A program made the position numbers and the translations under genes. DNA of 64,000 nt from a virus (Duplodnaviria > Heunggongvirae > Uroviricota > Caudoviricetes): the IMG/VR virus record IMGVR_UViG_2541047873_000001. One strand, written 5' to 3'. The notes under the pieces are model-generated. The model searched no databases and was not told the DNA's origin. It saw only the letters and a program-made list of their open reading frames with translations. Positions 14,178-52,584 of this stretch are shown here, in pieces. Within the stretch, counting starts at the first letter, position 1. Every line of letters begins with the position of its first letter.

Positions 14178-14210
14178 TATGTTAGAAAATTAAATTGATG
14201 TTTCTAATCA
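14178..14210. promoter_or_regulatory. Bipartite operator upstream of the icd-ant locus
   Basis: tatgttagaaaatt..N..tttctaatca inverted half-sites; a further weak half-site at 14269-14277. Confidence 0.55.
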
Positions 14211-14284: not shown

Positions 14285-14520
14285 TTATATTCATGCCGTC
14301 GTAGCAAATTCTGCGACCAGGTTTGACAGCCTGAATACTTACGCGGACAACCGCACATTTCCGATATTGCGGTATTTTTGTGTCCGTAAAACCACGTTAC
14401 GCCCGAATTATGGTGGGGCGTGATGGGGAGGCTTCGGCCTGCTGGTTTCGTAAGTGCCAGTCTGTCAACCCTGTCACGTCCTGCCACCTGTTTGACAGCG
14501 GGTCGCAGGTTGTTTATCAA
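14285..14520 (+). ncRNA. Candidate C4-like antisense RNA or immI leader (approximate bounds)
   Basis: ORF-free leader before icd with a UUCG-loop hairpin (gaggcttcggcctg) and repeated ttgacag / ctgtcaa complementary elements, resembling the P1 c4-icd-ant layout. Confidence 0.3.
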
Positions 14521-27726: not shown

Positions 27727-27803
27727 GATGGTGTAGCTCAGTAGGATAGAGCAGCAGCCTTCTAAGCTGTCGGTCGGTGGTTCGAATCCACCCACCATCG
27801 CCA
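27727..27803 (+). tRNA. tRNA-Arg (anticodon UCU)
   Basis: Hand-folded cloverleaf: acceptor gatggtg/caccatc, D arm gctc/gagc, anticodon loop cuUCUaa, T loop ggtgg-ttcgaat-ccacc, encoded CCA. Confidence 0.8.
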
Positions 27804-27808
27804 ATTTA

Positions 27809-27895
27809 GGGGAGTTAGTCCGTAGGGGTAGCGGGGTAGACTGTAAATCTACTGTCATTGCGACTCGGATGGTTCGACTCCATCACTCCCCACCA
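27809..27895 (+). tRNA. tRNA-Tyr (anticodon GUA), long variable arm
   Basis: Acceptor ggggagt/actcccc, anticodon arm gtaga-cuGUAaa-tctac, long variable arm, T arm gatgg-ttcgact-ccatc, CCA; resembles E. coli tRNA-Tyr. Confidence 0.7.
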
Positions 27896-27899
27896 AATT

Positions 27900-27975
27900 G
27901 CCGGTTTAGCTCAGTTGGTAGAGCGCCTGCCTTGTAAGCAGGATGTCAGCGGTTCGAGTCCGTTAACCGGCACCA
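27900..27975 (+). tRNA. tRNA-Thr (anticodon UGU)
   Basis: Acceptor gccggtt/aaccggc, D loop agctcagttggtagagc, anticodon arm cctgc-cuUGUaa-gcagg, T loop ttcgagt, CCA. Confidence 0.85.
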
Positions 27976-27983
27976 ACACAACA

Positions 27984-28056
27984 GGTAAGGGTATTTTGCG
28001 ACGTCGGAGATCGCCGAGCTTGGCAGAGGGTTCGAATCCCTACGAAGTACCCTTAC
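27984..28056 (+). other. tRNA-like element or pseudo-tRNA (T arm plus 10-bp terminal stem; no anticodon arm, no CCA)
   Basis: ggtaagggta...tacccttacc terminal helix encloses a gggttcgaatccc T-arm-like hairpin; too short for a complete tRNA. Confidence 0.25.
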
Positions 28057-28163
28057 CGTTGTGATGAATGCACAGGCTGATGTGCCGCAACTACAGTAGT
28101 GCGCGCTTTGCGGGGCTTGCTACAACCCTGTGTCGGAGTTCAGCACCGACCATCACAATCACT

Positions 28164-28250
28164 GGAGAGTAGGGAGCATGGTGCTCAAGCGGTCTTGAAA
28201 ACCGTCCCATTGCGCAAGCGATGATGGTTCGATTCCATTACTCTCCGCCA
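28164..28250 (+). tRNA. tRNA-Ser (anticodon UGA), type II
   Basis: Acceptor ggagagt/actctcc, anticodon arm gcggt-cuUGAaa-accgt as in E. coli tRNA-Ser(UGA), long variable arm, T loop ttcgatt, CCA. Confidence 0.7.
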
Positions 28251-28679
28251 GCGCAACGTTAAGAGTATTTGGCTAATTAAGCGAATGCCGGAAGCAGAAC
28301 CGGATCACCAAATGCGTACAGGCGTCATCGCCGCCCAGTCAGCCAAATGCTCTTACCATTGCGGTGAATGCGGCTAAGCGCACGCGGAACAGTTAAAACA
28401 GTAAAGGTGGTCTTTTTACTGGCGTAACGAGAATCCATAAGTGATCCGGCGTTAATTGTTAACTGGTTAACGTCACCGGGAGGCACCCGGCACCGCAACC
28501 TAACAGCAATGGCGTTTTGTCTTAAAAGGTGGCTGCAAGTGATGGATTTTTGGGCGTTTGCCGATAAAAACCCGGAGTGGACATTATTGTTTCTGCTGGT
28601 GGTTGCATACGGGGTAGAGCAAGCGGCAAAAGCCTTACGCGGTTCTGGCAAAAAGCGTAAGCGTAATTAACAGTAATCT

Positions 28680-28755
28680 GGCCCTTTAGCTCAGTGGTTA
28701 GAGCGGGCGACTCATAATCGCACGGTCACCGGTTCAAGTCCGGTAGGGGCCACCA
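28680..28755 (+). tRNA. tRNA with CAU anticodon, most like tRNA-Ile2 (AUA-decoding); elongator Met not excluded
   Basis: Near-complete resemblance to E. coli ileX-type tRNA as I recall it (GGCCCUUUAGCUCAGUGGUUAGAGC...CUCAUAAUCGC...GGUUCAAGUCC...GGGGCCACCA). Confidence 0.8.
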
Positions 28756-33569: not shown

Positions 33570-34607
33570 TTACCAGAGTTTTGCCGCGTACATCGTTTGT
33601 GTGAATGTGTACCCATAGCGTTCTTCAACGCTTTTACCGTATTTTTTCCTGGCTTCAGTAAGGCGGATGCCTGTCAGGTCATCGCCGGAGGCAATCATAA
33701 CTTCCAGTAGTTCCAGGTCCATTTTATCCAGCCTTGCCATTGCATCTTTAGCCTCTTGAATTTTCCGGCTAACGATCTGGTGTATGGCTGGATCGGCTTC
33801 GGCCAGCATTTTATCTGATTTGTTTTTTAAACTCTGATTGCGGATATCAATGTTTCTCAGGATATATGACTTCACGACATAGCTTGGCTGCTGCTTTTCC
33901 AGATCACGAACCCGATAAAGGTCAAATTCGCCGAGAAGTCCGCACGGAAGCGGTTTAATGCCAGTGTAAATGGTAAGGGTGCGGCGCTCACCAACGTTGT
34001 TAACAACGGGAATCTCTGTGTTTGCTTTTTTTGCAAAGATCAGCGCACCGTGCGTACCCACTCTGAAGCGTGAAAGTCCATTGTTGCCCTCGATATTGGT
34101 GGTAATCACCACATCGGTATAACCTTCTTTTCTTGCGCGGTATACCTCGCCCTCACGTTCAGCGGCGAAGAATCTGCGTTCTTCTTCAAGCGCACCGACA
34201 ACCTGTGAAAATATCCTGTTTTTCATGCTTTTCTTTATAGTTTTATCGTATTTTTTCAACAGGTCTTCGCGCGTAAATGTTCTCGTTGTGGTTGCGCTTT
34301 GCATAACGATATGCGTACTCTGATTAGTATCCTCAACAATGAATGGGATCGGTAAATAAACCGACTCAACAATGTTTGAGGCTTTGTCATCATCCTTGCG
34401 ACACAGATCAACAAAGGCTTTCCATTCGGCTACGCATTTTTCAGCTTCTTCTAATACAGCCGGATCATGTGTTAATGCAACATGGCGAAATTCCTCGCCA
34501 ACATAACTGGTATCATGGAAAACAGAGTTTGCGACCACCAGCTCTTTCCACCGTTCAGCGGTTTGCAGGAACCGTTTGTACTCATTCTCGATCGACTTCT
34601 TACTCAT
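33570..34607 (-). CDS. Candidate C1-type immunity repressor (positional inference only)
   Basis: 345 aa (ATG at 34607, MSKKSIENEY; the ORF-track N-terminal extension crosses operator sites). Divergent from the recombinase gene, with operator copies in its 5' region; sits between pacB and the lox-like site where c1 lies in P1. Confidence 0.35.
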   Translation of the reverse strand: MSKKSIENEYKRFLQTAERWKELVVANSVFHDTSYVGEEFRHVALTHDPAVLEEAEKCVAEWKAFVDLCRKDDDKASNIVESVYLPIPFIVEDTNQSTHIVMQSATTTRTFTREDLLKKYDKTIKKSMKNRIFSQVVGALEEERRFFAAEREGEVYRARKEGYTDVVITTNIEGNNGLSRFRVGTHGALIFAKKANTEIPVVNNVGERRTLTIYTGIKPLPCGLLGEFDLYRVRDLEKQQPSYVVKSYILRNIDIRNQSLKNKSDKMLAEADPAIHQIVSRKIQEAKDAMARLDKMDLELLEVMIASGDDLTGIRLTEARKKYGKSVEERYGYTFTQTMYAAKLW

Positions 34608-34623
34608 TATTCCTACTCGATTT

Positions 34624-34637
34624 AGTTTTCTAACATA
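34624..34637. promoter_or_regulatory. Operator-like site (AGTTTTCTAACATA)
   Basis: Motif copy 17 bp upstream of the candidate repressor start. Confidence 0.5.
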
Positions 34638-34710
34638 AAAGTCCTGTGACAAATTTATGCCGAATAACAAGGTGAGTAAAGGATAAAACCGCTTTTTTTT
34701 GATTGTTCCT

Positions 34711-34722
34711 ATTAGAAAATGT
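34711..34722. promoter_or_regulatory. Weak operator-like half-site (ATTAGAAAATGT)
   Basis: One-mismatch variant of the motif in the repressor/recombinase intergenic region. Confidence 0.3.
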
Positions 34723-34802
34723 AACCAGGAGCGGCTACCGCATGGCTGACGGATTTGCGAAGTGATCTGGTCGGTGTTTTTTTGGGAAAAAGTCCCGATT
34801 TC

Positions 34803-40224: not shown

Positions 40225-40614
40225 TCATATAGCAGGACTATCATCAAATTCACCGCCCCTGGCGTCATTGATAATGTGGGTGATCACACCAAAAACAGCA
40301 TTACTGCCCGTGTATCCATCGTCATCCACTGGTAACGCCTCTTTCTTCCCGGTGCTTAAATCCTCCAGGTGCTGGCGCGGATACTTCCTGTATCTCTTTA
40401 TGCGATATTCACCCTCCATAGCGCATATAAGCAGTGAACCATCAACCGGAGTAAGTGAGGAATCAACCACCAGCAAAGCACCTTGCAATATTCCCTCACG
40501 GTGATGGCTGTCTGCCGCCCGCATGAAGTAGGTCGCAGAAGGATGTCTGATTAGTTGCTGATCAAGAGAAATTCGGCTTTCAACATAATCCGCCGCAGGA
40601 GAAGGGAAGCCCAT
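40225..40614 (-). CDS. humD: HumD (UmuD homolog, S24 peptidase-like)
   Basis: 129 aa as in P1 HumD; UmuD-type C-terminal core; LexA box in its promoter. Confidence 0.75.
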   Translation of the reverse strand: MGFPSPAADYVESRISLDQQLIRHPSATYFMRAADSHHREGILQGALLVVDSSLTPVDGSLLICAMEGEYRIKRYRKYPRQHLEDLSTGKKEALPVDDDGYTGSNAVFGVITHIINDARGGEFDDSPAI

Positions 40615-40633
40615 AGCGTTTTACCTCAATAAT

Positions 40634-40653
40634 ACTGTTTATTCATACAGTAT
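40634..40653. promoter_or_regulatory. LexA (SOS) box
   Basis: TACTGTTTATTCATACAGTA fits CTGT-N8-ACAG, 20 bp upstream of the humD start. Confidence 0.65.
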
Positions 40654-40737
40654 ACATTGAAAAGGCATAGTTTGTGAAAGCGGGGTTTGTAGGCGCGCCA
40701 CGCTGGGGGCTAATCACATTTCTCCCCCAGCTTGCCG

Positions 40738-40989
40738 TTATTTTTTTGGTGCATCCTCGTTCTGATACACCGGATCGCTCCCTTTTGGCAACTGGAGGCT
40801 TAACTGCCGGTAGTGCCGTAGCCGTTCCATGAAATAGGCGCGCAGGTTTTCCGGTTGCTCACGGGCCACCTGCTCTGCAATCACAGGTATATTCAGCCGT
40901 TCTTTGTAAGCAACGCCGCTGGCGGCAAGGTCTACGTTCACCTTGTCTCGCTCTTCCTGGCTTTTAGCTGCTATATTTCGATCTGACAC
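40738..40989 (-). CDS. Hypothetical protein
   Basis: 83 aa, upstream of humD on the same strand. Confidence 0.4.
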
Positions 40990-41021
40990 AAGAAACCTCC
41001 AGGAGTTAGTGGATCAGGCAC

Positions 41022-41372
41022 ATGCACAATAACGTTCTCAATGTTAGCCGTTCAATTCAGACAATCAGGGACTGCACCAGTGTGGTGGCATCAATCCCAT
41101 TGCGAAACAGCATAGACGAACTGCAAATTCGTGTATTGAATCCGAATCAGGCTAATAAGCAATTGCGCTTTATTTTGACGCTGAAAAGTGAAACAGAGGG
41201 GATAAAGCACAGCGTAAAAGTGTTTTCTGAGGCCATTCTGCTTAATGGGAAGCTCCGGCATCTGATAAGGCCAGAACGTCAATATCCTGACGTCCTGGCG
41301 CGAGAAAAAGACCTTCTTTCTGAAGTTCAGGATAGGGTGATCGATTTCGTCAAATGCTATCCCCTGCATTGA
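41022..41372 (+). CDS. Hypothetical protein
   Basis: 116 aa; lone rightward ORF with a competing antisense ORF. Confidence 0.3.
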   Translation: MHNNVLNVSRSIQTIRDCTSVVASIPLRNSIDELQIRVLNPNQANKQLRFILTLKSETEGIKHSVKVFSEAILLNGKLRHLIRPERQYPDVLAREKDLLSEVQDRVIDFVKCYPLH

Positions 41373-41624
41373 GGGCAGATGTTCCCTTCCGCAAAGTAGG
41401 GAAAACTGCTATCAAGTTCATCACACCATCTGCGATGGTCGTAGCACCAAAACGCCTCCCACGGTGCACGGAAATACTTCATCCATCAGGACACGCGATC
41501 AGGTATATCTGCTGGTGGCAGTTCTTCTGGCAATAATTTGCCTGATAATTCCCTTTCCGCCCGCGACAGCATTTTTTTGAGGCTCGCGTTCTCTTTTTCA
41601 AGCTCATCTACGCGCACCTGTAAT

Positions 41625-42077
41625 TCAGCTTTCGTTGGCATGGTCCGCCTCATGCTTTTCAGCCACCAGCGGCAATAAAGCCCTGGCCATCTTATGAACC
41701 AACAGAGCATCGATAATGCCAAGCGTATGCCCCGGCTTAATGTTTAATGCCGCCTCAAGGTGACACCTTTCCAGGTCACTTTTCTCGGCTTGTTTATGAT
41801 GATCTGGCGTAATAACGTCGCCCAAAACACGGCTAATTCTTTCTCGTAATTGCTGGGTGCCAGCACACTTGATCGCTGTATCGTGGAGACGGTTAACCAG
41901 TTCGCGATAAACATGCGGCTTAATTCGGATACGTTCACCGGTGACGCCCTTTCCTGGTGCTGGCACCGAACTATCCGGAATATCCGGATAGTTGCCAGCC
42001 AGTCTGCGCAAAACAGCCTTAACACCCTCAATACGGTCATCATCGCAATTTTCCAGCGTATCTATGCGGTCGTGCAT
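41625..42077 (-). CDS. Hypothetical protein sharing a domain with the C-terminus of the DUF4406 protein
   Basis: HVYRELVNRLHDTAIKCAGTQQLRERISRVL parallels HIYRELVNALRDIAAVYHGTEQLRERLAHTI in 50097..50708. Confidence 0.4.
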   Translation of the reverse strand: MHDRIDTLENCDDDRIEGVKAVLRRLAGNYPDIPDSSVPAPGKGVTGERIRIKPHVYRELVNRLHDTAIKCAGTQQLRERISRVLGDVITPDHHKQAEKSDLERCHLEAALNIKPGHTLGIIDALLVHKMARALLPLVAEKHEADHANES

Positions 42078-42131
42078 GATGATTGCGTTATCAATATCAG
42101 GATTGCCGGTCCACTCATTACCGCGATTGGA

Positions 42132-42707
42132 TTAGGCAGCCTGGTTGCCGCGTACTGGTTGATTCTCGGCTTTACCCTGTCTGTCGTCGCTGCATGAATG
42201 CCCTTCCAGCCAGACCAGTGCTTGTCGCATGAAATACGCAATATGCTTGCCGTGGTAATCGTCTTCATCGATGTGAAAAGCGATACTGCGGATATATTCA
42301 ATTGCGTTTTCAATGGCCTCCGGCGTTACCGGTGCTGACATATTTTGATTTTGGAGTGCCAAGACGCGGCTGGCATCCTCTACGCCTTTAACTGCATCTG
42401 CGCAGTAGTTATAGCGATTGCATTCCACTAACTTCTGCTTGAGATTTTCAATTGCTTGTGCGACATCAGCCTGCAATTCCGGAACTGGCGGAGTGGCATA
42501 TAACGGCACCCACTTTGGTGCTTTATCCCCGACCGAACGCTGATACCAGTCACCCGGTTTGTATTCATAAAACTCACCAACAGGCTCTGCTTCCAGCGAT
42601 GCCAGCGCAATTTCATAAGCACGGCGCTCAATATTGTCTCGCACGTCCAGACTGCCTATGCGCTCTTTGATTTCTTTAATCAGTTCTTTGTCGGTTAAAG
42701 TGGTCAT
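42132..42707 (-). CDS. Hypothetical protein
   Basis: 191 aa within the long leftward operon. Confidence 0.4.
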   Translation of the reverse strand: MTTLTDKELIKEIKERIGSLDVRDNIERRAYEIALASLEAEPVGEFYEYKPGDWYQRSVGDKAPKWVPLYATPPVPELQADVAQAIENLKQKLVECNRYNYCADAVKGVEDASRVLALQNQNMSAPVTPEAIENAIEYIRSIAFHIDEDDYHGKHIAYFMRQALVWLEGHSCSDDRQGKAENQPVRGNQAA

Positions 42708-42717
42708 AAATTATGCC

Positions 42718-43251
42718 TCAGTTGTATCCGATTGGATTAACCGCAACAATAACGCCATCCGCGAACAAATCTTTAATGAGGTGTTCGCTCGGCTCGCCTT
42801 TTTCGTACTCTTCAATAAGGTAAGTGTCTCCATCCTCATTGATATAAACTGGAAGAATGGAACCGTTGATGAAGTAGGTTCCGTTGTTATCGAGGATTTT
42901 TGCCTCGGCGATTTGTTTTTTGGTAAAAAGATCTTCTTTTTTCAAAGTTGCCATATCTGTTTCCTTATGTGGGTTAATTTTATTGTGTAGCTTCCTGAAT
43001 GGGGTCCACACTATATCGATATACAGTTCAACTAACGGTTCAAATACTTTCCCCATTAGAACAGTCACTAATATTGAGGCTATTGGTATCAGCAACACGA
43101 AAAACAGAATGATAAACAGCAATTCTATTGCTCTACTCTTTCGCGGATATTCTTTTCTGAATAAAGTGGGCATTTCCTCCCCATTAAATGCCTCAATGAT
43201 TTCTCCAGTGTTTTGCGCTGCACCTGAATTATCTTTAAATCCTTCTTTCAT
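42718..43251 (-). CDS. Membrane protein, AT-rich gene
   Basis: 177 aa with a central TM helix; an internal ATG at 42954 with RBS could give a separate 78-aa product. Confidence 0.35.
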   Translation of the reverse strand: MKEGFKDNSGAAQNTGEIIEAFNGEEMPTLFRKEYPRKSRAIELLFIILFFVLLIPIASILVTVLMGKVFEPLVELYIDIVWTPFRKLHNKINPHKETDMATLKKEDLFTKKQIAEAKILDNNGTYFINGSILPVYINEDGDTYLIEEYEKGEPSEHLIKDLFADGVIVAVNPIGYN

Positions 43252-43979
43252 CGTTTGCTATCTTCCTCACACCCAAGATATGAAAGAGATGTAATTGCTT
43301 TTGCACGGAAACCACCAACCTTGCTAAGTGCGCTTTTAAGTGCGTCAAGGTCAGATTGTGATTTGATCATGAAAGTTAACCGCGCAATTCCAGACATAGA
43401 GTCAGAACCATTCACTGCGTTGTAGTGATATATGTATCGGGTGACTGATTGAGTCACGCCCTCCTGCTGGTGGTTTATATTGGCGTCCTGTCTTGTGTTG
43501 GCCTGCTCCAACTCTTCGATACGTTCAGCCATCGCAGCACACTCTTCAAAGTTGCTTAATGCTTTTCGCTCCGATTCAGCGCATTGTTTTTCCAGTTCTG
43601 CTATGCGCTTACCTCCATCCGCGATTACTCCCTCGTAATGCTCGCGCTGCTCGTTGAGTTTTGATTTTGCCGACTCCAGTTGTTTTGTTAGTTCCGCAAT
43701 ACGGCAAACATCGTTGATACGCGTTTCCTCTAATGCGTTGATCTCATCCAGTAGTGCCAGCGCAACTTTTGGTGGGATAGCCGCGATATAACGGGCATTA
43801 GCACCAGCATTCCTTTGCCCATCAATGCCAGGCCAGTCAATAAAGTATCCGCAATGCCTACCCTCAGACGTGCGCGAAGGATAAATGCCGTTATGACCCG
43901 GCAAAATATATGCTACCCATTCATCTTGCGTTGCCTGTTCCGCCGCCTCGCGCAGTTCTTGATAGTTAATTTTGCTCAC
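43248..43979 (-). CDS. Ea22-like coiled-coil protein
   Basis: N-terminus MSKINYQELREAAEQATQDEW, shared with 48436..49122; typical of ead/Ea22-like prophage proteins. Confidence 0.5.
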   Translation of the reverse strand: MSKINYQELREAAEQATQDEWVAYILPGHNGIYPSRTSEGRHCGYFIDWPGIDGQRNAGANARYIAAIPPKVALALLDEINALEETRINDVCRIAELTKQLESAKSKLNEQREHYEGVIADGGKRIAELEKQCAESERKALSNFEECAAMAERIEELEQANTRQDANINHQQEGVTQSVTRYIYHYNAVNGSDSMSGIARLTFMIKSQSDLDALKSALSKVGGFRAKAITSLSYLGCEEDSKR

Positions 43980-44232
43980 TGGTTGCCTCCGCTTCCCACG
44001 TTTTCAGACTTTCACCACAGAACGGGCAAAATGAAATTCGAATCGGCGATTTAGAAAACTCGCCTGACCGCAGCATGATCAGGTCTTGTGAATGAATTAA
44101 TGCATGGTTATAGATTTTGTATTTCAGCAGACCTTTTCGCGTCGTGTATTCAGCGTCATGTTCCAGGGATTGCGTCAACGCCGCGCACGGTTCTATCTTG
44201 TTGCCATTAATTTGGCATTTTGACTCACTCAC
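43966..44232 (-). CDS. Hypothetical Cys-containing small protein
   Basis: 88 aa, in-operon. Confidence 0.3.
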   Translation of the reverse strand: MSESKCQINGNKIEPCAALTQSLEHDAEYTTRKGLLKYKIYNHALIHSQDLIMLRSGEFSKSPIRISFCPFCGESLKTWEAEATSEQN

Positions 44233-44815
44233 TGGTTGCCCCCTGAATACGCTTAAACTCGATTACCCATACCCACGGGTTAGATAGCCAGTTATCCTGC
44301 CCGTAAATACTGCGCCAGATATCACCAAAACCAACGCGATAAACAGCTTCAGGTGGCGTAATCTTGTACGTCGCCGGAGTTGCGCCTTCTGCTTTAGCAT
44401 CTGCCTCGCTCATGTCATGCAGCCGTTCCACACGCACGTCGGTAATTTCCAGAAGAATGCGCGATGCCCAGCGCGGCATGTGAATTGATGGCGTCCACTT
44501 TTCTGATACTGGTTTATTACAAACATCGACCGGAACCCGGTGCGTTTGTTCTGTCCAGGAGTTACGCACGCTTGCGCGATAAACCAGCGTTGCGACGTCC
44601 GTCGCTTTGCCATGTACCCGGTAGGTTTCGCGAACCCAAATACGATCGCCCGGTTGACCATATGGACAATGCTTGGCAAGCAACTCTGCGGCAACTGCTC
44701 GTCCATAGAATTTTTCTTCAACAATCCTGCGAGTCTGTGTTTTATTCCCGCCAAGAATTGCCCGGACCATCTCATCGTTAAAAATCATCCCGCGTTCTTT
44801 CATTTTTTGATCCAC
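44225..44815 (-). CDS. Conserved phage protein of unknown function
   Basis: 196 aa; N-terminus MIFNDEMVRAILGGNKTQTRR recurs in prophage proteins. Confidence 0.4.
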   Translation of the reverse strand: MDQKMKERGMIFNDEMVRAILGGNKTQTRRIVEEKFYGRAVAAELLAKHCPYGQPGDRIWVRETYRVHGKATDVATLVYRASVRNSWTEQTHRVPVDVCNKPVSEKWTPSIHMPRWASRILLEITDVRVERLHDMSEADAKAEGATPATYKITPPEAVYRVGFGDIWRSIYGQDNWLSNPWVWVIEFKRIQGATSE

Positions 44816-44819
44816 TCCA

Positions 44820-45815
44820 TCAGTTATTGAACGTGATCACTCCGCGCTCGATGGCGAAGTCGAAAAGCTGGTTGGCGGCTACGTAAAGGCGTATGCCATG
44901 TGCTTTTTCCCATGCCCGGACATCGTTTTCTGCGCTTCTGGCGCATTCATCGCAAAGAGGAACGGCCCAGCGATCGTGTTCGTTTAACGAGCGGGCGCGG
45001 TACATGAACGGGTGATTAACTTTGCCTCCGCATCCGATGCACGGACGAGAAATCACAAACCGGAGATAAGCCGGGCTTTTACCGAGAACCGCTTTTGGTC
45101 GGCGCATATACAGCAGGCCGGAATCCTCATCTACAGACAGGTTGACGATCTGCTCTGCGGTTATGTCCACCAGCTCACGGGTGCTGTGCTCCCAGGTGAT
45201 ATCCGATTCTTTCAGTGTGCCGGTAGGGATTTCCTGTTTTGGCTGACAAAATGCAATGCGACCGGCTTCATCTGGCAGCTCGTCTTTCAGATTCCGGCGA
45301 ATGGCCCAAAAAGTGAGTTCAACCATGCTCAGATCGCGTTCTGGCGGTAGTTTTAACTCGCTCGCAGCCCAGTTCATAACCCAGTTGGCACGATTCAGGG
45401 ATAACTGGTCATCCAGCTTGCCGTACCCCTTCATCATGTATTCCGCATCATGCTTCCAGCACAGGCGAACGGCAGAGCCGTTATAGAAATGAGTGGTTAG
45501 CTGGTGGCTGCAATCGCGCTTATCGTGCGCCTGGCAATCGTGGATATTGGAACTTACCCAATGAACAAGCGAATCTTCACCGCCTAATGCGTTAAATACG
45601 CGCTCGCTTTGAAAAAATGCTTTCAGAGACTGGTTGGCAACCAGCGAATAGTTCAGATCCACTACGCCATCTGGCGTGTTTTCAGCCTGTTCGCGCGGAA
45701 GTGGAGAGATAATGAAACGGCGACCTGCGCCAATGTAGTTGCTGGTGGGCTTGTCTACCGGAAAGACAGCCACACCAGCTCCGTTTACGAAATGAGGTGT
45801 GATTATTGCACTCAT
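44820..45815 (-). CDS. DUF968-like protein with C-terminal Cys cluster
   Basis: 331 aa; CIGCGG...PLCDEC motif. Confidence 0.35.
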   Translation of the reverse strand: MSAIITPHFVNGAGVAVFPVDKPTSNYIGAGRRFIISPLPREQAENTPDGVVDLNYSLVANQSLKAFFQSERVFNALGGEDSLVHWVSSNIHDCQAHDKRDCSHQLTTHFYNGSAVRLCWKHDAEYMMKGYGKLDDQLSLNRANWVMNWAASELKLPPERDLSMVELTFWAIRRNLKDELPDEAGRIAFCQPKQEIPTGTLKESDITWEHSTRELVDITAEQIVNLSVDEDSGLLYMRRPKAVLGKSPAYLRFVISRPCIGCGGKVNHPFMYRARSLNEHDRWAVPLCDECARSAENDVRAWEKAHGIRLYVAANQLFDFAIERGVITFNN

Positions 45816-45856
45816 AATGTATACCGACTCTGTTTTGTTCCGAGCGGTAAAATAAT

Positions 45857-45888
45857 ATGTTAGAAAATTAAAATCAATATTCTAACAC
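45857..45888. promoter_or_regulatory. Bipartite operator
   Basis: atgttagaaaattaaaatcaatattctaaca inverted half-sites, intergenic. Confidence 0.55.
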
Positions 45889-45919
45889 GGTTATGAGTGC
45901 ATAAACGATGTGTTCAGGA

Positions 45920-46606
45920 TTACGGCTGTCCTCCCTTCACCTGCTTTAGCGTCAGATTTCCGCAAAAAACCGCGCCAGTGTCTATGTAGTGCTGGTTCCA
46001 GAAAGATTTCGGGCTGTTTACTGGCGTATGCCCGAAAATAAAGCTATCTGCACCAGTGATCATTCCACCAACACCATCAACCGCGTCATAAAATCGCTCA
46101 CGCCGCCAGGTAACATTGAGATCGCTAACAGGTTTACCAAACTGGTATTCGTTATCAGGATAGTCGGCATGGGCTATAACGATAGTTTTATGCCCGGTGT
46201 TCAACTCAATGATATAGGGTAAACGTCTTACCAGCTCCACCAGCGCCCTGGCTAATATTTCCCGATCAGCGTCCAGCATGAAGAACCATTGGCCGCCATT
46301 CATTAGCCAGTTATTCACGTTGCCTGCGGGGCTTAACGCATCGATCATTAATCGCTCGTGGTTTCCCATAACCGACCGAAACCAGGGCATCTGCAATAGC
46401 TCCAGGCATTCAACATTTTCGGTGCCGCGATCGATAAGGTCGCCAACCGATATCAGTAAATCCTGTGTCGGGTCAAAGTCCACACGATGAAGTTCAGACA
46501 TCAATCTGGTGTAGCAACCATGCAGATCACCAACAACCCATATGTTTCTGTAGCCTGAACCATCAATACGGCTATATAAATTCACTTCATGCAGCGCCTG
46601 GGTCAT
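45920..46606 (-). CDS. ppp: Ser/Thr protein phosphatase (lambda PPase / P1 Ppp-like)
   Basis: GDLHGC, GDLIDRG and GNHE metallophosphatase motifs; ATG at 46606 overlaps the upstream stop. Confidence 0.8.
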
Positions 46607-46914
46607 GCGGCAACCTTCTCCCGCAGCCAGATACAAACCGGGCCATCTTCAGTGTCATGAATAGAGCCAACAAACCATCCTTCGCCCTCTGGTCGCTCTG
46701 GTTCCCAGGCGGCAATATCGGGACCATCTGCGTCCAGATTAAAATGATCTTCATCCATACTGCGAATAGTCCACTGAAGATTATTTTCCTTCATCCAGGC
46801 GTCAAATTCCTCAGTGGATATATATTCACGATCTGCGCAAAACTTTTCATACTCCGGATGTGTCCAGCAGCCATATTCATCACGTTCTACCGGCATTTCT
46901 TTAATGATGCTCAC
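46603..46914 (-). CDS. Hypothetical protein
   Basis: 103 aa, coupled to ppp. Confidence 0.4.
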
Positions 46915-47135
46915 TCTTCATCCTCCAAGTCGGCAACGGCCTCCATCACATCAGAACCGCGAATAACCTCAAAAGCACGGCAGGCCATTTCAAACACCTG
47001 TTGTTCTTGCGGATGCGGTGACTCCCAATACTTAAAACCAGGTCGATGCTCGTAACCCAACATGGAATAAAAATCGCCAGCAAGTTCAATCGCGGCATCA
47101 ACAAGTTCGCGATTTGTCATCGTCTGTTCTGTCAT
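46911..47135 (-). CDS. Hypothetical protein
   Basis: 74 aa, coupled. Confidence 0.35.
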   Translation of the reverse strand: MTEQTMTNRELVDAAIELAGDFYSMLGYEHRPGFKYWESPHPQEQQVFEMACRAFEVIRGSDVMEAVADLEDEE

Positions 47136-47407
47136 TTTGTTTTCTCCTGTCTGAACATCACTATCATCAGGTCGCCTTTTGTCGCTATCCTGGCTGTTGT
47201 ACCTGGTTCAATGCGGCTAAGCTCAAATGCGTCATAGAACGCTTCTAATGCCTTCTGGCGTAGTTCCTGTTTGCGCCGTTTTTTCCACTGTTTTAGGAAA
47301 ATGGAACCCAGCCATCGCCATGTACGGGACATGATGTAAAGCCAACCGAGAAGTGCCAGACCGGTATTTAGGAGCGTATCGATCGTTATTGTCGTGTCGA
47401 TATTCAC
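47132..47407 (-). CDS. Small membrane protein
   Basis: 91 aa with TM helix LLNTGLALLGWLYIM. Confidence 0.35.
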   Translation of the reverse strand: MNIDTTITIDTLLNTGLALLGWLYIMSRTWRWLGSIFLKQWKKRRKQELRQKALEAFYDAFELSRIEPGTTARIATKGDLMIVMFRQEKTK

Positions 47408-48114
47408 TGGCTGCCTCCTTTGCGAAGCTGTTCAGCAATACTTACGCATATCTCTGCGCCTCTAATCAGCCCCGGAACGTTCTTGTTTGGCCCAACTTCA
47501 CCATCGACAAAATCAATCATCGCGTTACGAGCCATATCCACGCCCTGCGCACGTACTTCAGCCAGGAAAGCATCGGTGGCTGGGGTGTCAACACGGATAC
47601 TGTCGCGCAAGATGAAAAATGCATTGAGCATTCCAGTCTCTGGCACTTCATCCTGATGCTTCTCATACGCATCAAGAGCCTTCATCATCTCAGCTCCGAA
47701 TGGTTGAGGGTGCACAGACTTCAGCTCCGCATTCTCCGCCGCCAGCACCACGCGTTCGCTCTCCAGTTCTGTAATGCGCCGTCTTGCAGCATCCAGTTCA
47801 ATCGACAATTTTCCCAACTGCTCTTTATGCTTCTTGTATTCCTGATATGCGTGCCAAGACTGACCTTTGCGCACACTATCCGTGATATCAGTAATCTGTT
47901 CTGGTGTTAGCGTGGTCAGTGGCTGTGCTGGGAAAATCAGCACTTTCCCGGCATCCCAATCAAAACCCACCTGAATTGACTGAACCTCAACTGATGGTGT
48001 TGAACCGATGCGACCAGGCGAATGAACAACGATCGTTACATTCATATCGCGACGATGGCTGTGGTTGTTGGACAAAATACGATTCACCAACTCCGAGAAT
48101 TTGGAAAATTTCAT
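47404..48114 (-). CDS. Ea22-like family protein
   Basis: ATG at 48114 ([10 protein letters not shown]) overlapping the upstream stop; C-terminus related to 49119..49793. Confidence 0.4.
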
Positions 48115-48434
48115 GCTGATTCCCTTTGCTCTTCCTGGATAATGTTGTTGCAATCTTTCACGCACTCGTTGCAGATGAAAACGTTGTCCCCGGCAATTAA
48201 CTTTTTAACGGTGTGCTGGGATTTGTTGCAGAAGCTGCAATAAAGCGTTGGACTGGCTGATACGGATGGTGCGCCAGATGTCAGCCGCGCGATGTCGTTC
48301 TTGCGACGCAATATCACACGGCTGCACTCGACCAGCATCTCCGGGGATATATCCTCCTCCGTGGCGAGCGCCTCCAGACGTTCGAGCAAGCGAAATACTT
48401 TTTCCTGGGTGATTGCAGAATGCGATGTGGTCAT
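48111..48434 (-). CDS. Stand-alone ClpX-type C4 zinc-finger (ZBD-like) protein
   Basis: [39 protein letters not shown] closely parallels the ClpX N-terminal zinc-binding domain; AAGGAGAG RBS; no AAA+ module. Confidence 0.55.
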
Positions 48435-48435
48435 C

Positions 48436-49122
48436 TCACTCTCCTTTGAGGCGAATGCCAGCGGCACGGGAATCATTCCATCGCTTTACTTCTTCACGAA
48501 TTACGTCAATGCATTCTTTCGAATCCATTAGGTAATCTTCATCAAAAAGCCTTTCCTGTTCGTTTTCTATCGCAACAATGATTGCTTCAACTAACTTTTG
48601 TGCCTGAGAACCACTTTCTAACTCTGCAATGCGCTTCTCTGCGGCTTCCAGCTTCTCGCGCATATCGTCAACGTACTCGACCAGAGATCCGCCAGCAGGA
48701 ATTTCGCACTCCTCGACCAGTTGGAAGTAGATATCAGCTGCGGCCCGTGTGTTGCTATGCCTAGCGTCGCCCATCTCACCTTCACGAAGAGCATCGCGTT
48801 CGGCGGTAAGATTGGCTATTTTGCTGTCTTTGCCTTCAAGCTCAACGCGCAGCTTCCCTACCGTTAGCGCAATATCCTCGTTCTCCTGGTCGCGGCGTTT
48901 GATGTATTGCTGGTTTCTTTCCCGTTCACCCAGTAGTGCCAGCACGGTTTCTGGTCCGGCCAGAAATTTGAAGGCGTTGAGCGCATCAATATCCACACCG
49001 TAATCTTTAAGTTCCTGTTCACTTAACAAATCATCATCAGCTGGCAACATTAACAGGCGTTCCATTGCTGGAATTGCACGTTCCGCCGCCTCACGCAGTG
49101 CCTGGTAATTAATTTCGCTCAT
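48436..49122 (-). CDS. Ea22-like coiled-coil protein
   Basis: N-terminus [16 protein letters not shown], paralogous to 43248..43979. Confidence 0.5.
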
Positions 49123-49793
49123 TGGTTGCCTCCTTTGCGAAGCTGGGCAGCGAACCTATCAGCTGCATCCGCGCAAGCAGAAGCAACGGAATCAAAAAAT
49201 GGATCATCTCCTGTATCGCGCATCGTCAAAGCGAATGCCTCCACCCCTTGTGCCTGTATTTCTACAAGGGATGCCTTAGATGTACTGCTTTTCGCCTCGC
49301 CTAATTCGTTATGAGCGATGTTCGCTATACATGCGATGTCTATATCTGGATGATTAATTGGGCAATGGCTAAGAATTGCCTCAAGTGCTGCTTTTTTGCT
49401 TTGGCATTCCGCCACCAGCGCCCCGCAATTGCTTTCCAGCTCTGCAATACACTTTTTAGCGGCCTCCAGCTCAACACGCAGATTCTCAAGCGTTAGAGCC
49501 TTCTCCACGTTCTCGTCCAGCAGTTCAATCACATCAGGATCGCTACCATCAACTACTGATATGCGCGAATTTTTGTAATGCTCGTCAGCATAAGTTCGTC
49601 CAGTTTTGAAGCATCCGTCATCCTCCATGCCGGAACAGGCATAAACAACATGTGATCCAGATATGCGCTGCATTGACATTTCCTCGCCACAAACAGGGCA
49701 TTTAGGCGCTGGTTTCGGTGAATAACGTTCACGTAACGGATAGTAAAGCTCGATCTCCGCCAGTTGCTCTGGCGTTAAACCTTCAGACTTCAT
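49119..49793 (-). CDS. Ea22-like protein with Cys-rich N-terminal region
   Basis: C-terminus matches 47404..48114; CPVCGEE...C..C motif. Confidence 0.45.
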   Translation of the reverse strand: MKSEGLTPEQLAEIELYYPLRERYSPKPAPKCPVCGEEMSMQRISGSHVVYACSGMEDDGCFKTGRTYADEHYKNSRISVVDGSDPDVIELLDENVEKALTLENLRVELEAAKKCIAELESNCGALVAECQSKKAALEAILSHCPINHPDIDIACIANIAHNELGEAKSSTSKASLVEIQAQGVEAFALTMRDTGDDPFFDSVASACADAADRFAAQLRKGGNQ

Positions 49794-50100
49794 GTACTCT
49801 CCTTTCGAAATAAACGTACTGATTAATCATTCCCAGGGGCATTTCGAGTTTTTCTGCGATCTCACGGCGGGGAACACCACACTGATGAAGCTGCCGCGCC
49901 AGTTCTATATCGCTCTGCCGGTATTTGGCTGACTGGTGAAAGTCTCCTTTCAGAATCATGCTGATCCGCAGTTGCCGCGCTTTAGTCCTGACAGCACCAC
50001 CGGTACGCCCGATCAGTCTCCCAATACCCTCGACTGTCATAGTCCCGGCGCACTGGCGGAGTATCATGATTTCTGCCCTTCCCCATCCCCGCCAGCTCAC
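49783..50100 (-). CDS. Hypothetical protein, possible HTH
   Basis: 105 aa; ARQLHQCGVPRREIAEKLEMP resembles a helix-turn-helix. Confidence 0.35.
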   Translation of the reverse strand: MSWRGWGRAEIMILRQCAGTMTVEGIGRLIGRTGGAVRTKARQLRISMILKGDFHQSAKYRQSDIELARQLHQCGVPRREIAEKLEMPLGMINQYVYFERRVHEV

Positions 50101-50708
50101 GCAGAACTCCTTCTAACCAAAAGAACGCCATCTTCAGAAACAACGTTGCAGGACTTCAGGTAATTCATTGCCTCTTTCGGTAATGGATTCTTTGGATCGG
50201 CGCTTGCCAGGGATTTCGATAACCTCATGATAAATTTGATCATTACCTTCTGACGGAGCTTGTGCTCATGAGATGCAGACAGGTAATAGGAAATGGTATG
50301 GGCTAAACGCTCACGAAGCTGTTCTGTGCCGTGATATACAGCAGCGATATCACGCAGTGCATTGACCAGTTCCCGGTAAATATGCGGAGCAACCTGGCAT
50401 TCAATGTTGGTTGGTGACTCATAAATTACATTCAGCCCCAGCTTTTGAGCCAGCTCGTGCTCTGCACGAGCGCCAACTGATTCCTCCCACCCCTTGAGCA
50501 AATAGACCGCATTAGCCGAACGCACCATTGCAAGGCAAATATCCATGTATTCGCTCTGGCAGAGGCCAGCAGGTAACAGCGCCGGATTCAGAACAATATG
50601 CCCTACCTCCATCAGCTCTTTTGCTTTCGAAAAAAACGCTGTGCGGTTGTAGTCGGGATAACCAGTCATCGGACCCGCGATGTAAATTTTCATAATGCGT
50701 TTTGACAT
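50097..50708 (-). CDS. DUF4406 (nucleoside 2-deoxyribosyltransferase-like) protein with extra C-terminal domain
   Basis: MKIYIAGPMTGYPDYNRTAFF...GHIVLNPA signature; ATG at 50706-50708 overlaps the stop of the small ORF upstream (TGATG). Confidence 0.5.
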   Translation of the reverse strand: MSKRIMKIYIAGPMTGYPDYNRTAFFSKAKELMEVGHIVLNPALLPAGLCQSEYMDICLAMVRSANAVYLLKGWEESVGARAEHELAQKLGLNVIYESPTNIECQVAPHIYRELVNALRDIAAVYHGTEQLRERLAHTISYYLSASHEHKLRQKVMIKFIMRLSKSLASADPKNPLPKEAMNYLKSCNVVSEDGVLLVRRSSA

Positions 50709-50860
50709 CAAAGTTTCCCCAGGAACGTTACGCAAAAGTTGATGAGAGCAAAGAGTTCAATGCCCAGCTCAAACAACGCCAGGACAGTGAAAAACAGGGC
50801 ATATAGCAACCCAATTTCTGTACCGGATTGCTGGTGGATTGCACTTATTGCGACAAGCAT
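50708..50860 (-). CDS. Small hydrophobic peptide (~50 aa), first gene of the leftward operon
   Basis: GGAGG RBS, then MLVAISAIHQQSGTEIGLLYALFFTVLALFELGIELFALINFCVTFLGKL; not in the ORF track (under 60 aa). Confidence 0.3.
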   Translation of the reverse strand: MLVAISAIHQQSGTEIGLLYALFFTVLALFELGIELFALINFCVTFLGKL

Positions 50861-50904
50861 CATGACCTCCTGATATAGCGTCTGAAAAAAAGTATCTTCA
50901 TTTT

Positions 50905-50938
50905 GTGTTAGAAAATCAATTTTGATTTTCTAACACAT
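50905..50938. promoter_or_regulatory. 34-bp palindromic operator between divergent operons
   Basis: tgtgttagaaaatcaa-tt-ttgattttctaacaca: perfect 16-bp inverted repeat. Confidence 0.65.
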
Positions 50939-50980
50939 TTGATCAACCATAGCGGCGATGTAGACAAACCGGGTATTTCT

Positions 50981-51556
50981 ATGAAGCAAAGCTATTGGGA
51001 GAAACAGACACAAAAAGCCCTGCAAAAACTGGCTGATCCGAAATGGCGGGAGGAACAAAGGGCAAAGCGTCTTCAGCAAGCTCAACGCCAGCAGCAGCGT
51101 GCGCGAGAAAAAGCCGCATCGCCTGAATATCGGCAAAAGAAAATTGAAAAAGCGAAGCAATATGAACAGCGAAGAAAAGAGAAGGCCGCTTCTGCTCCTG
51201 TCAAAAAAACTCGCGCGTCACGCGGCCTGAAAGGCAGAACACTCACAGCAGATGAGCGCCGGATACAAACTGCCATCGGTGCTCTCCCCTGCATTGCCTG
51301 CCATATGCACGGACAGCATAGCCCTGTGGTATCCCTGCACCACATCTTCGGAAGAACAGCAGAGAACGCGCATAAATACGTCCTCCCTTTGTGTAAATGG
51401 CACCATCAACACGCAGCGCCAGCAGAGATCCGCGAGCAATACCCCTGGTTGGTTCCTGTTCATGCTGATGGAAAAATAGGCGGCAAAGCAGATTTCAGGC
51501 GGCACAATGCTGATGAAATGACGTTGTATCAGATGGTGACTGAATTAATAAATTAA
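50981..51556 (+). CDS. Ref-like HNH-type nuclease (recombination enhancement function-like)
   Basis: Basic N-terminus, then His/Cys cluster CIACHMHGQHSPVVSLHHIFG...PLCKWHH; sits next to an operator as ref does in P1. Start is uncertain (50939 or 50981). Confidence 0.45.
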   Translation: MKQSYWEKQTQKALQKLADPKWREEQRAKRLQQAQRQQQRAREKAASPEYRQKKIEKAKQYEQRRKEKAASAPVKKTRASRGLKGRTLTADERRIQTAIGALPCIACHMHGQHSPVVSLHHIFGRTAENAHKYVLPLCKWHHQHAAPAEIREQYPWLVPVHADGKIGGKADFRRHNADEMTLYQMVTELIN

Positions 51557-51568
51557 TTTTCTAACATT
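51551..51568. promoter_or_regulatory. Operator-like site (AATTAATTTTCTAACATT)
   Basis: Motif copy immediately after the ref-like stop. Confidence 0.45.
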
Positions 51569-51887
51569 TTAAGTTGAATTATGAGATCCACCGTTGTACA
51601 TTCACAACCGATTGGTACACCGGTCAACTTTTTGAGACAAACCGTTTGGTTTTTCGTATGATTGCCGCCGCCATACCAATGGCGGTGCAATATAGGTGGC
51701 TGAAAAGCCCCCGTTGACTCACGGTGTTCCAGCCTTTATTGCGCCGCCACCAGACCGTGGAACAGTCGATGGCGGCTCCGAAAGCAAGGAGTCACTACAC
51801 TATGAACAGCTACTGTCTTTTCCCATCACTCGTTGTCCGCCACTCACGCGATAATCTGCATTCTTTACTCGCGCTGGGGGTGTCAAA

Positions 51888-52055
51888 ATGACCGTTCGCT
51901 ACCTCAACTTTCAAATCCAGAACATCACTGGCGGTTGCTATGACTGGTTTGTCACTCTCGGAAAAGAAGTGATCACCGGGAAGCTGGATGAAGTGAAAGC
52001 TAAAGCAATGGCCTACGCCTGCAAGCAAGCCCAAAAGAAGAAAAGAAAAGCATAA
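51888..52055 (+). CDS. Small basic protein (55 aa), tentative
   Basis: GGGGG RBS then MTVRYLNFQIQNITGGCYDWFVTLGKEV...KKKRKA; terminator follows. Confidence 0.25.
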   Translation: MTVRYLNFQIQNITGGCYDWFVTLGKEVITGKLDEVKAKAMAYACKQAQKKKRKA

Positions 52056-52160
52056 GAAAACACACAGTTGCGCCCTGGCATTATCGTGGGGTATATTTCT
52101 ACGGCACCTTAGAAAAACGGGTGCCGGGATTGGAACCCCGGATAATGCAAAAGGCGACAC

Positions 52161-52184
52161 AGACGCCGAAAGCGTCTTTTTTTG
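52161..52184 (+). terminator. Rho-independent terminator
   Basis: agacgccgaaagcgtct hairpin plus a T7 run. Confidence 0.6.
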
Positions 52185-52199
52185 TGTCATGCCATCGCA

Positions 52200-52345
52200 C
52201 AGCCATGCGTAGCGTTTAGCTCAGAGATCAATGGTAGTGCTGGCTGGGCTGCCGAAAGGCAGGCCGGTTCCCTTTTGCGCCGGTAGTTCCAACCCAGTCA
52301 GTGCTACCGCCATTGAGATTGGAACCTCACGCGGTAGCTCCTTAA
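52200..52345 (+). ncRNA. Candidate C4-like antisense RNA or immI leader, second copy (approximate bounds)
   Basis: GAAA-loop hairpin ggctgccgaaaggcagcc-like and elements complementary to the icd RBS region (ggaggctgcc); same architecture as 14285..14520. Confidence 0.3.
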
Positions 52346-52368
52346 ATTAGCAAAAGGAGGCTGCCAAT

Positions 52369-52584
52369 ATGGCTACTATCCCTACCCCAACTCATTCTGA
52401 ATTTATCTGGCGTTTCTATTCCTGCCAAAAACACCTCTATATCTGCGTAATGGCTGCTACCGAAGCAGAGGCGCGCTCATACCTTCCCGAAGAACCCTGT
52501 ATTTTTGCTGCTCGCTTCACTCTTGATGCGATGGAGATCCTCAATTACTGGAATCTGCCGATGAACTGCGTGGAGGTGCACTGA
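52369..52584 (+). CDS. icd: Icd-like cell division inhibitor, second copy
   Basis: 71 aa, paralog of 14538..14762; overlaps the start of the second Ant gene. Confidence 0.55.
   Translation: MATIPTPTHSEFIWRFYSCQKHLYICVMAATEAEARSYLPEEPCIFAARFTLDAMEILNYWNLPMNCVEVH

Follow-up and report, generated by a model that had tools for sequence, protein, structure and literature searches.

The subject of this analysis is a chain of small leftward genes, together with the inverted repeat at its head, in the viral record IMGVR_UViG_2541047873_000001 (IMG/VR; Caudoviricetes). The whole stretch of DNA that was analysed, 64,000 nt, is hereafter called the window. Judged by its sequence, the window is a D6-like, P1-family phage-plasmid (plasmid prophage) of Escherichia coli. 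In a whole-window blastn, Escherichia phage D6, itself a P1-family plasmid prophage, is collinear from ~36 kb, backwards through the origin, to ~63 kb. Region 42000-51600, which contains most of the gene chain, matches D6 with 72% coverage and 91% identity and a 91.7-kb E. coli plasmid with 96% coverage and 99.3% identity, and the chain is flanked by ref, hot, humD, and phd/doc of a P1-family plasmid prophage. Among 5,426 complete E. coli genomes, 22 have the window-type version of region 50690-51010, each time on a ~90-kb plasmid, and D6-like elements have also been reported from Salmonella and Shigella (bioRxiv 10.1101/2025.09.12.675607).

The head of the chain is a 117-bp gap between the leftward ATG of its first gene, g01 (50863), and the rightward ATG of ref (50981). 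Within this gap lies a palindrome at 50904-50937, composed of a left arm (50904-50919; TGTGTTAGAAAATCAA) and a right arm (50922-50937) of 16 nt each, which are 100% complementary and flank a 2-nt centre (TT). The distance from arm to start codon is 40 nt on the g01 side and 43 nt on the ref side. An earlier note on this DNA had placed a perfect 34-bp palindrome at 50905..50938 and described it as heading the leftward genes. The palindrome is present, but its span is one base off and, being built as 16+2+16 nt, it is no strict 34-mer; likewise, the arm beside the leftward genes is the best conserved, but the palindrome also faces ref, i.e., it is bivalent on a divergent region. The features of the head and of its presumed regulator are as follows.

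50904..50937, no strand assigned: two-armed (bivalent) candidate D6-type C1 operator, 16+2+16 nt, from the inverted repeat and motif scores
50708..50863, minus strand: g01, first gene of the chain, 51-aa hydrophobic protein with an AGGAGG ribosome-binding site (phrog_8890, E 7e-31)
50981..51556, plus strand: ref (RecA-dependent nuclease), diverging from the leftward string (PF16786, E 5e-36; 92% identical to D6 Ref)
50891..50919, minus strand: predicted leftward promoter, -35 TTGATT (50919-50914), 17-nt spacer, -10 GATACT (50896-50891), from a heuristic sigma-70 scan
50922..50950, plus strand: predicted weak rightward ref promoter, -35 TTGATT (50922-50927, in the right arm), 17 nt, -10 AACCAT (50945-50950), score 7.5
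51553..51568, minus strand: candidate monovalent operator overlapping the ref stop, upstream of isrK/C4-icd-ant (one mismatch to the half-site; 29.6 bits)
33570..34607, minus strand: c1 repressor gene, encoding the presumed operator-binding protein (345-aa ORF; 80% identical to D6 C1)

Each arm of the palindrome is a copy of a half-site that is dispersed over the window. Allowing at most 2 mismatches, the degenerate half-site TRTGTTAGAAAATYAA occurs 15 times where 0.14 occurrences are expected; with at most 3 mismatches there are 16 against 0.72 expected, a number reached in 0 of 100 shuffles. The D6 genome has 16 matches (~0.4 expected), which keep syntenic positions despite a DNA identity of no more than 75-95%. 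A crude gene call, by which 92% of the window is coding, puts 15 of the 17 listed sites between genes; of the two placed inside genes, one (34622) is an artefact, the c1 ORF having been extended too far. Five pairs (26382/26400, 30162/30180, 45856/45874, 50904/50922, and 62654/62672) consist of a plus-strand site followed exactly 18 nt on by a minus-strand site. The arms of 50904/50922 are identical and score ~30 bits each on the site matrix, and no other pair in the window has both arms at full strength; in the other four one arm is weak (16-19 bits) or below its partner, as in 26382/26400 (31.7 and 26.7 bits). Short inverted repeats are frequent in AT-rich intergenic DNA, and the palindrome might be a chance repeat of this kind, a terminator hairpin, or part of a replication origin, and play no part in regulation. 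This enrichment and the identical spacing of the five pairs speak strongly against such an origin, as do the conservation of the site across relatives (described below), the absence of a G+C-rich stem or T-run from the palindrome, and a leader that folds no better than shuffles. A chance palindrome or terminator is almost certainly not the explanation, and this candidate was rejected on motif enrichment and conservation.

The identity of the regulator is suggested by the genes that the sites accompany. One site (34622-34637) lies 14 nt upstream of the c1 ATG, the pair 30162/30180 lies upstream of lpa, site 12974 upstream of repL, the pair 62654/62672 upstream of hrdC, and site 25137 upstream of pmgS, while site 36017 is downstream of a cre-like recombinase gene. 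Sites 24081 and 26532 also belong to the predicted set. Site 14178 (14178-14193) precedes a c4-a1b1/C4 module at 14285-14491 (Rfam matches at 14285-14337 and 14406-14491). Site 51553, which overlaps the ref stop codon at 51554-51556, precedes an isrK/C4 module at 52104-52314 (isrK at 52104-52182; C4 RNA at 52227-52314). The window holds two such immI-like modules with C4 antisense RNA (Rfam RF01695; also isrK and c4-a1b1), with an operator before each. In addition, the minus strand at 34700-34730 carries TTACATTTTCTAATAGG, a weak sequence that resembles the half-site in the opposite orientation and precedes the c1 operator by ~100 nt. The c1 region may thus have a second operator, just as P1 has several there (Oc1a-e).

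For P1, 22 C1 operators have been reported, which are asymmetric, 17 bp long, and dispersed, and have the consensus ATTGCTCTAATAAATTT (PMC8546580). In the P1 record these include Oc1a-e, Olpa, OpmgR, and OpmgT (pmgT-U-V), together with Odmt, which precedes uhr-hrdC-dmt, and Oppp (former Op83), which precedes pmgN-pmgO-pmgP-ppp-pmgQ (NC_005856; Lobocka et al., 2004). Two P1 operators bracket ref: Oref (Op2a) falls between the -35 and -10 of P2ref, and Omat (Op2b) overlaps the ref stop (NC_005856). The window has the same general arrangement, with many scattered asymmetric sites of ~17 bp for one master repressor over early sigma-70 promoters, and the arrangement recurs gene by gene. Sites occur before c1, lpa, ref, the C4 region, hrdC/dmt, and the ppp-containing unit; an operator arm just upstream of ref matches Oref, and site 51553-51568 over the ref stop matches Omat. 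Since the sites precede c1, lpa, repL, C4/icd, hrdC, and ref, which are the places of the P1 C1 operators, the dispersed motif is best read as the D6 lineage's own, heterospecific C1 operator, which would lie outside the P1/P7 immunity group. The window C1 and P1 C1 are collinear, with 21% identity over 241 aa (pairwise E 1e-7), and the window c1 has the same position next to pacB and the recombinase site. By the same comparison, the palindrome at the head of the gene chain is best read as a bivalent operator on a divergent region, its ref-side arm corresponding to P1 Oref.

A regulator other than C1, such as the g03 product of the gene chain, an Lpa-type late activator, or a host protein, might bind the dispersed motif instead, which would then be no immunity operator. 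The product of g03 does match a PHROG of transcriptional regulators, and the homology of the window C1 to P1 C1 is remote. However, the motif immediately precedes c1 and lpa themselves and occupies the positions at which C1 operators have been defined by experiment in P1, and the site-by-site match (ref upstream, ref stop, lpa, c1, C4, and hrdC/dmt) is hard to explain otherwise. A search for P1-type late-promoter -22 boxes gave no hit, though the late box of D6 may differ and internal late promoters are conceivable. Binding by such a regulator is accordingly rated as quite improbable, and C1 is kept here as the presumed ligand.

The D6-type system also departs from that of P1. The operator is TRTGTTAGAAAATYAA in the window and ATTGCTCTAATAAATTT in P1, and the window C1 has 345 aa compared to 283 aa for P1 C1. 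Whereas P1 ref adjoins cre/c8, the window ref diverges from the accessory string, and the ppp-containing unit has 18 genes of lambdoid-type content rather than 5 genes. P1 does possess two-armed operators, Obanab (Op72ab) and Oc1ab (Op99ab), in which two inverted half-sites lie on a promoter with their A/T-rich ends inward, as in the window. In these P1 operators the arms have 6 bp in common, so that the operator measures 28 bp and its arm centres are separated by 11 bp, whereas in all five pairs of the window the arms are 2 bp apart and the operator is 34 bp long with centres 18 bp apart. Unlike Obanab and Oc1ab, the head pair of the window serves two divergent promoters, according to the predictions given below, and the ref operator and the accessory-string operator, separate in P1, are merged into one divergent double site. 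It is possible, and is put forward tentatively, that D6-type phage-plasmids use a re-specified and re-spaced P1 immunity system in which the operators, the two on either side of ref included, have kept their positions gene for gene. A full-text literature search for the operator core sequence returned no relevant paper, though the D6 operator consensus may already be in print.

Conservation of the head was assessed in 46 fetched loci encoding relatives of the DUF4406 protein, the product of the second gene of the chain. In 33 of 33 loci with a close DUF4406 relative, the leftward-side operator arm lies 203-211 nt upstream of the DUF4406 start. This arm is near-invariant, with a mean column conservation of 0.98 (majority-residue fraction over 27 non-redundant upstream regions), whereas the mRNA leader beyond it diverges (0.60 in the same alignment). 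The ref-side arm is degenerate in D6-type relatives (nnnGTTAGATATTCAA), and the perfect palindrome is limited to the sub-lineage of the window and to one further locus, L037 (IMGVR_UViG_2908543018_000007), in which both arms bear the same substitution (GAAATTCAA). L037 is a more distant relative, and its perfect palindrome, TGTGTTAGAAATTCAA-AA-TTGAATTTCTAACACA, is situated ~210-245 nt upstream of the DUF4406 match. The symmetric change of its arms may track a variant C1.

Promoters in both directions are plausible at the head. In a heuristic weight-matrix sigma-70 scan, the best leftward candidate scores 9.4, at about the 95th percentile of background; its predicted -35 element, TTGATT, is the inner end of the left operator arm, and the rest of the arm fills the spacer. 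The same leftward layout is found in relatives as TTGATT-16-TAATAT (D6-type) and TTGAAT-16-TAGTCT (L037), and the position of the rightward ref candidate is kept in D6-type relatives as TTGAAT-17-AATCAT. Taken with the motif and the P1 synteny, this layout suggests that the palindrome is probably a double site for a D6-like C1 master repressor over divergent promoters, keeping both the gene string and ref silent in the lysogen. The inner 6 nt of each arm (TTGATT) would serve as the -35 elements of back-to-back promoters. In the lysogen, C1 on both arms would block RNA polymerase at the leftward promoter, and hence the genes from g01 through ppp and probably on to 41486, and would also block the weak ref promoter. 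Once C1 is inactivated, by induction or in a newly infected cell, the string would be expressed early in the lytic cycle as one message, with the start/stop overlaps handing ribosomes from one small gene to the next.

Expression in the lysogen is common for the accessory genes that plasmid prophages carry. Were the palindrome essentially the ref operator, the leftward genes would be unrepressed and expressed in the lysogen as lysogenic-conversion cargo. P1 ref is itself controlled by C1 through Oref, and lambda Ea22, a relative of several products of the string, favours lysogeny (PMC7093339). Against this, the arm that is degenerate in D6-type relatives is that on the ref side, while the leftward-side arm is near-invariant, and the only reasonable leftward -35 element falls within the latter. 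Furthermore, a second operator pair occurs inside the string, and the homologous ppp unit of P1 is annotated as C1-controlled. An operator devoted to ref is thus unlikely, and control of both the string and ref by C1 is the preferred interpretation.

The string itself is a minus-strand chain of 18 genes from 50863 to 41486 (9.4 kb). Eleven of its junctions are start/stop overlaps (ATGA, GTGA, TGATG, or longer), five are gaps of 0-10 nt, and one is a gap of 104 nt (45816-45919). The genes that follow g01 are listed below.

50097..50708, minus strand: g02, DUF4406 / nucleoside 2-deoxyribosyltransferase-like protein (PF14359, E 7e-35; phrog_355, E 4e-44)
49783..50100, minus strand: g03, 105 aa, possible helix-turn-helix protein, core gene (phrog_323 'transcriptional regulator, D5-like', E 1e-26)
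49119..49793, minus strand: g04, Ea22-like paralog a (PF13935, E 3e-10; phrog_368)
48436..49122, minus strand: g05, Ea22-like paralog b (PF13935, E 4e-28)
48111..48434, minus strand: g06, protein with a C-terminal ClpX C4 zinc finger (PF06689, E 1e-17, residues 65-101)
47404..48114, minus strand: g07, Ea22-like paralog c, no Pfam match, central coiled coil (phrog_368, E 1e-54, common to g04 and g05)
47132..47407, minus strand: g08, DUF4752 protein, core gene (PF15944, E 1e-42)
46911..47135, minus strand: g09, 74 aa, core gene (phrog_4132)
46603..46914, minus strand: g10, 103 aa, in most relatives (phrog_1372)
45920..46606, minus strand: g11, Ppp, NinI-like Ser/Thr phosphatase (Metallophos; PF00149, E 2e-15; phrog_246, E 4e-106)
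44820..45815, minus strand: g12, DUF968 / HNH protein, P1 PdcB-like (PF06147, E 1e-44; phrog_96, E 1e-102)
44225..44815, minus strand: g13, 196 aa, variable, patchy among relatives (phrog_874)
43966..44232, minus strand: g14, 88 aa, variable (phrog_4030)
43248..43979, minus strand: g15, Ea22-like paralog d (PF13935, E 7e-26)
42718..43251, minus strand: g16, DUF4014 protein (PF13198, E 1e-19)
41625..42707, minus strand: g17, pmgU-like gene of 360 codons, interrupted by an in-frame TAA at 42134-42132 (tblastn of D6 orf104)
41486..41641, minus strand: g18, last gene, 51-aa coiled-coil protein, 100% identical to its homolog D6 orf105

Much of the gene content proposed in the earlier note was borne out. 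The stop of the hydrophobic first peptide does overlap the start of the DUF4406 gene, as the TGA of the 51-codon ORF (50863 to 50711) shares its A with the ATG (TGATG, 50710-50706), and the DUF4406, ClpX zinc-finger, Ppp, and DUF968 genes were confirmed at the E values given above. Three of the four supposed Ea22-like paralogs pass the Pfam Ead_Ea22 model, and the fourth (47404-48114) joins them via phrog_368. The tight packing attributed to about 20 leftward genes is real, but there are 17 ORFs as far as 42132, and 18 genes as far as 41486. Position 42132 is not the end of the string, since the TAA there lies inside the pmgU-like gene and marks no gene end. The pmgU-like protein of D6 (orf104, 360 aa) aligns over residues 1-360 in one frame (42707-41629) at 96.7% identity. 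The TAA is present in the window and in a near-identical IMG/VR metagenomic contig (L005) only; D6 and eleven other relatives have GAA at this codon. In the window it splits the gene into ORFs of 191 and 150 aa. Downstream of g18 there is a convergent plus-strand ORF at 41022-41372.

The 104-nt gap between ppp and the DUF968 gene contains a second operator pair, as the earlier note had indicated for position 45857, and a further promoter candidate.

45856..45889, no strand assigned: internal bivalent operator, strong arm 45856-45871, degenerate inverted arm 45874-45889 (31.5 and 18.9 bits)
45849..45877, minus strand: predicted internal promoter, -35 TTGATT (45877-45872), 17 nt, -10 TATTTT (45854-45849), score 10.8

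In the direction of transcription the gap reads CGTGTTAGAATATTGA-TT-TTAATTTTCTAACATA, the same 16+2+16 geometry with a degenerate upstream arm. The predicted promoter is above the 95th percentile of background and its sequence is fully conserved in relatives; the block from the internal operator to the DUF968 start is conserved in 25 of 25 non-redundant relatives, L037 included. RNA folding revealed no stable structure in the ppp-DUF968 gap and no hairpin between the ppp stop and the operator. Similarly, the terminator scan of 40500-52500 showed no intergenic terminator-like hairpin in the string, only weak ones inside coding sequence, and neither this gap nor the operon end nor the leader folds better than shuffles. 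Because no hairpin separates the ppp stop from the internal operator, read-through from upstream is likely. The internal operator and promoter would at the same time provide an independent C1-controlled entry for the half of the string from DUF968 to orf105 (g18), and the distal half probably does have such an entry point of its own. The string had been taken for a single operon of ~9 kb. Its genes do share one strand and short junctions, but the second predicted promoter at 45849-45877 argues against a single unit. Given the conserved internal operator pair with its own predicted promoter, the 9.4 kb are probably one regulon but two transcription units.

A stricter division of the same C1 regulon is also conceivable, in which the head operator governs g01 to ppp only and the genes from DUF968 to orf105 are transcribed from the internal operator-promoter with little read-through. 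The internal candidate TTGATT-17-TATTTT has the top score (10.8) among the three intergenic regions scanned, and the operator pair is kept as a block with the 5' region of DUF968 in L037 despite a different upstream gene, which there ends in a GC-rich hairpin. P1, moreover, divides comparable genes among short C1-controlled units (Oppp, OpmgR, and OpmgT). On the other hand, no terminator-like structure stands between the ppp stop and the operator, all of the genes are on one strand, and ppp and DUF968 are adjacent in nearly all relatives. Such a strict separation is a serious possibility, though it falls short of being probable, and control of the entire string by C1 from the head operator, assisted by the internal one, is retained.

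Several results weigh against the reading of the palindrome as a C1 double site that silences the string and ref. Only 6 of the 17 positions of the P1 consensus recur in the half-site, the homology of the window C1 to P1 C1 is distant (21% identity), and a database-wide tblastn of C1 over all phage records found only D6 and not P1. The promoter candidates at the operators are weak, with 8/12 consensus matches, and that of ref is at an estimated ~80-85th percentile of background; a stricter consensus promoter scan of 40500-52500 gave no promoter at either operator. At the end of the string (41486), the terminator scan of the same interval and RNA folding yielded no convincing intrinsic terminator. 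Finally, the predicted internal promoter leaves a single operon unestablished.

The cargo of the string consists of a conserved frame and exchangeable cassettes, as seen in a presence/absence matrix over 35 loci (in which g18 is labelled g19). The frame comprises ref, g01, DUF4406, g03, DUF4752, g09, g10, Ppp, and DUF968; g01 is present in all D6-like relatives at 68-100% identity, and ppp keeps its place next to DUF968 in nearly all loci. The variable cassettes are the Ea22-like genes, the ClpX zinc-finger gene, g13-g16, and the pmgU-like gene. In the proposed scheme, the frame genes other than ref would be carried as cargo along with cassettes shared with lambdoid phages. The order of genes in D6 (orf88-orf105; NC_050154, 76689-84804) is the same: orf88, DUF4406, orf90, DUF4752, orf95, orf96, ppp, a pdcB-like gene, DUF4014, a pmgU-like gene, and orf105. 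The D6 counterpart of g11 is annotated as 'similar to P1 gene ppp', and in D6, too, operators precede orf88 and separate ppp from the pdcB-like gene. D6 differs in that the ref-side head arm is degenerate (GTTAGATATTCAA), hence there is no perfect palindrome, in that its Ea22 and other cassettes are different, and in that its pmgU-like gene is intact.

Ea22-like proteins other than the first are only 18-27% identical to it in alignment and have mainly a central coiled coil in common, so that their genes are old mosaic paralogs and no recent duplicates. At the nucleotide level, the Ea22 block shares patches of 92-97% identity with lambdoid and P22-like phages (HK106, HF4s, VSe13, and many Stx phages). 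A repeat of 33 nt, with copies 70-88% identical, occurs at three gene boundaries (49119-49151, 47404-47436, and 43976-44008), where it covers the 3' end of a gene together with the start of its successor and the ribosome-binding site of the latter. The genes upstream of it are the Ea22-like g04 and g07 and, at the third boundary, g14, which is ahead of the Ea22-like g15. This repeat may be a recombination joint for cassette exchange.

In lambda, ea22 is transcribed from pL, which is repressed by CI. The gene is an early one that favours lysogeny (PMC7093339, PMC10834534). The resemblance of the block to the Ea22-rich accessory regions of lambdoid prophages, which the earlier note had drawn, holds for its content: as in the lambda exo-xis region, proteins of the Ead/Ea22 domain are encoded among small and presumably early genes, and the 92-97% patches agree with this. 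It does not extend to the surroundings, which are P1-family. No exo, xis, or int flanks the string, the repressor and operators are P1-type with asymmetric sites of the monomer type in contrast to CI/OL, no N-type antitermination is evident, and the element is a plasmid prophage. The placing of such a block under the immunity operator, pointed out at the same time, is correct insofar as the block is headed by an operator, but it is no departure from known phages, as Oppp already heads the ppp operon in P1.

The window string is the D6-lineage counterpart of a well-described P1 design and leaves the understanding of P1-family regulation unchanged; its departures are the operator sequence, the 34-bp spacing, the merged divergent site for ref and the string, the length of the unit, and the lambdoid-style content. 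If D6-type phage-plasmids do use a re-specified and re-spaced P1 immunity system, the double site at 50904-50937 would allow a single repressor complex to shut two back-to-back promoters at once, and the D6-type family would be a natural system for the joint specificity change of a monomer-binding repressor and more than 15 operators. The analysis provides a usable operator consensus (TRTGTTAGAAAATYAA) and a probable map of the C1 regulon for D6-like plasmid prophages. It also predicts that a large accessory block, one that swaps cassettes with lambdoid phages, Stx phages among them, stays silent in the lysogen and is turned on at an early stage of the lytic cycle, which bears on whether the cargo can affect the host.

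Further observations concern individual products of the string and the remainder of the window. The g03 protein has a weak Sigma70_r4_2 match, under the Pfam cutoff. A PADLOC scan of ten operon proteins gave coiled-coil noise only and no known defence system, and an Rfam scan showed no RNA family inside the operon. The g06 protein has 107 aa, of which the last 37 form a ClpX-type C4 zinc finger without the ATPase. ClpXP has been reported to degrade the Phd antitoxin in P1. One possibility is that, in lytic growth, this free-standing zinc-finger protein acts as a decoy that competes for adaptors or substrates of ClpX. The C-terminal part of the DUF4406 protein (50259-50396, residues ~105-150) and the distal fragment of the pmgU-like gene (41793-41928, ~50-95) match the same PHROGs (21459, 38634, 20174, 21749, and 15065), which suggests a module of ~45 aa common to both ends of the gene string. 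Elsewhere in the window, four clustered tRNA genes at 27727-28752 match the tRNA region of D6.

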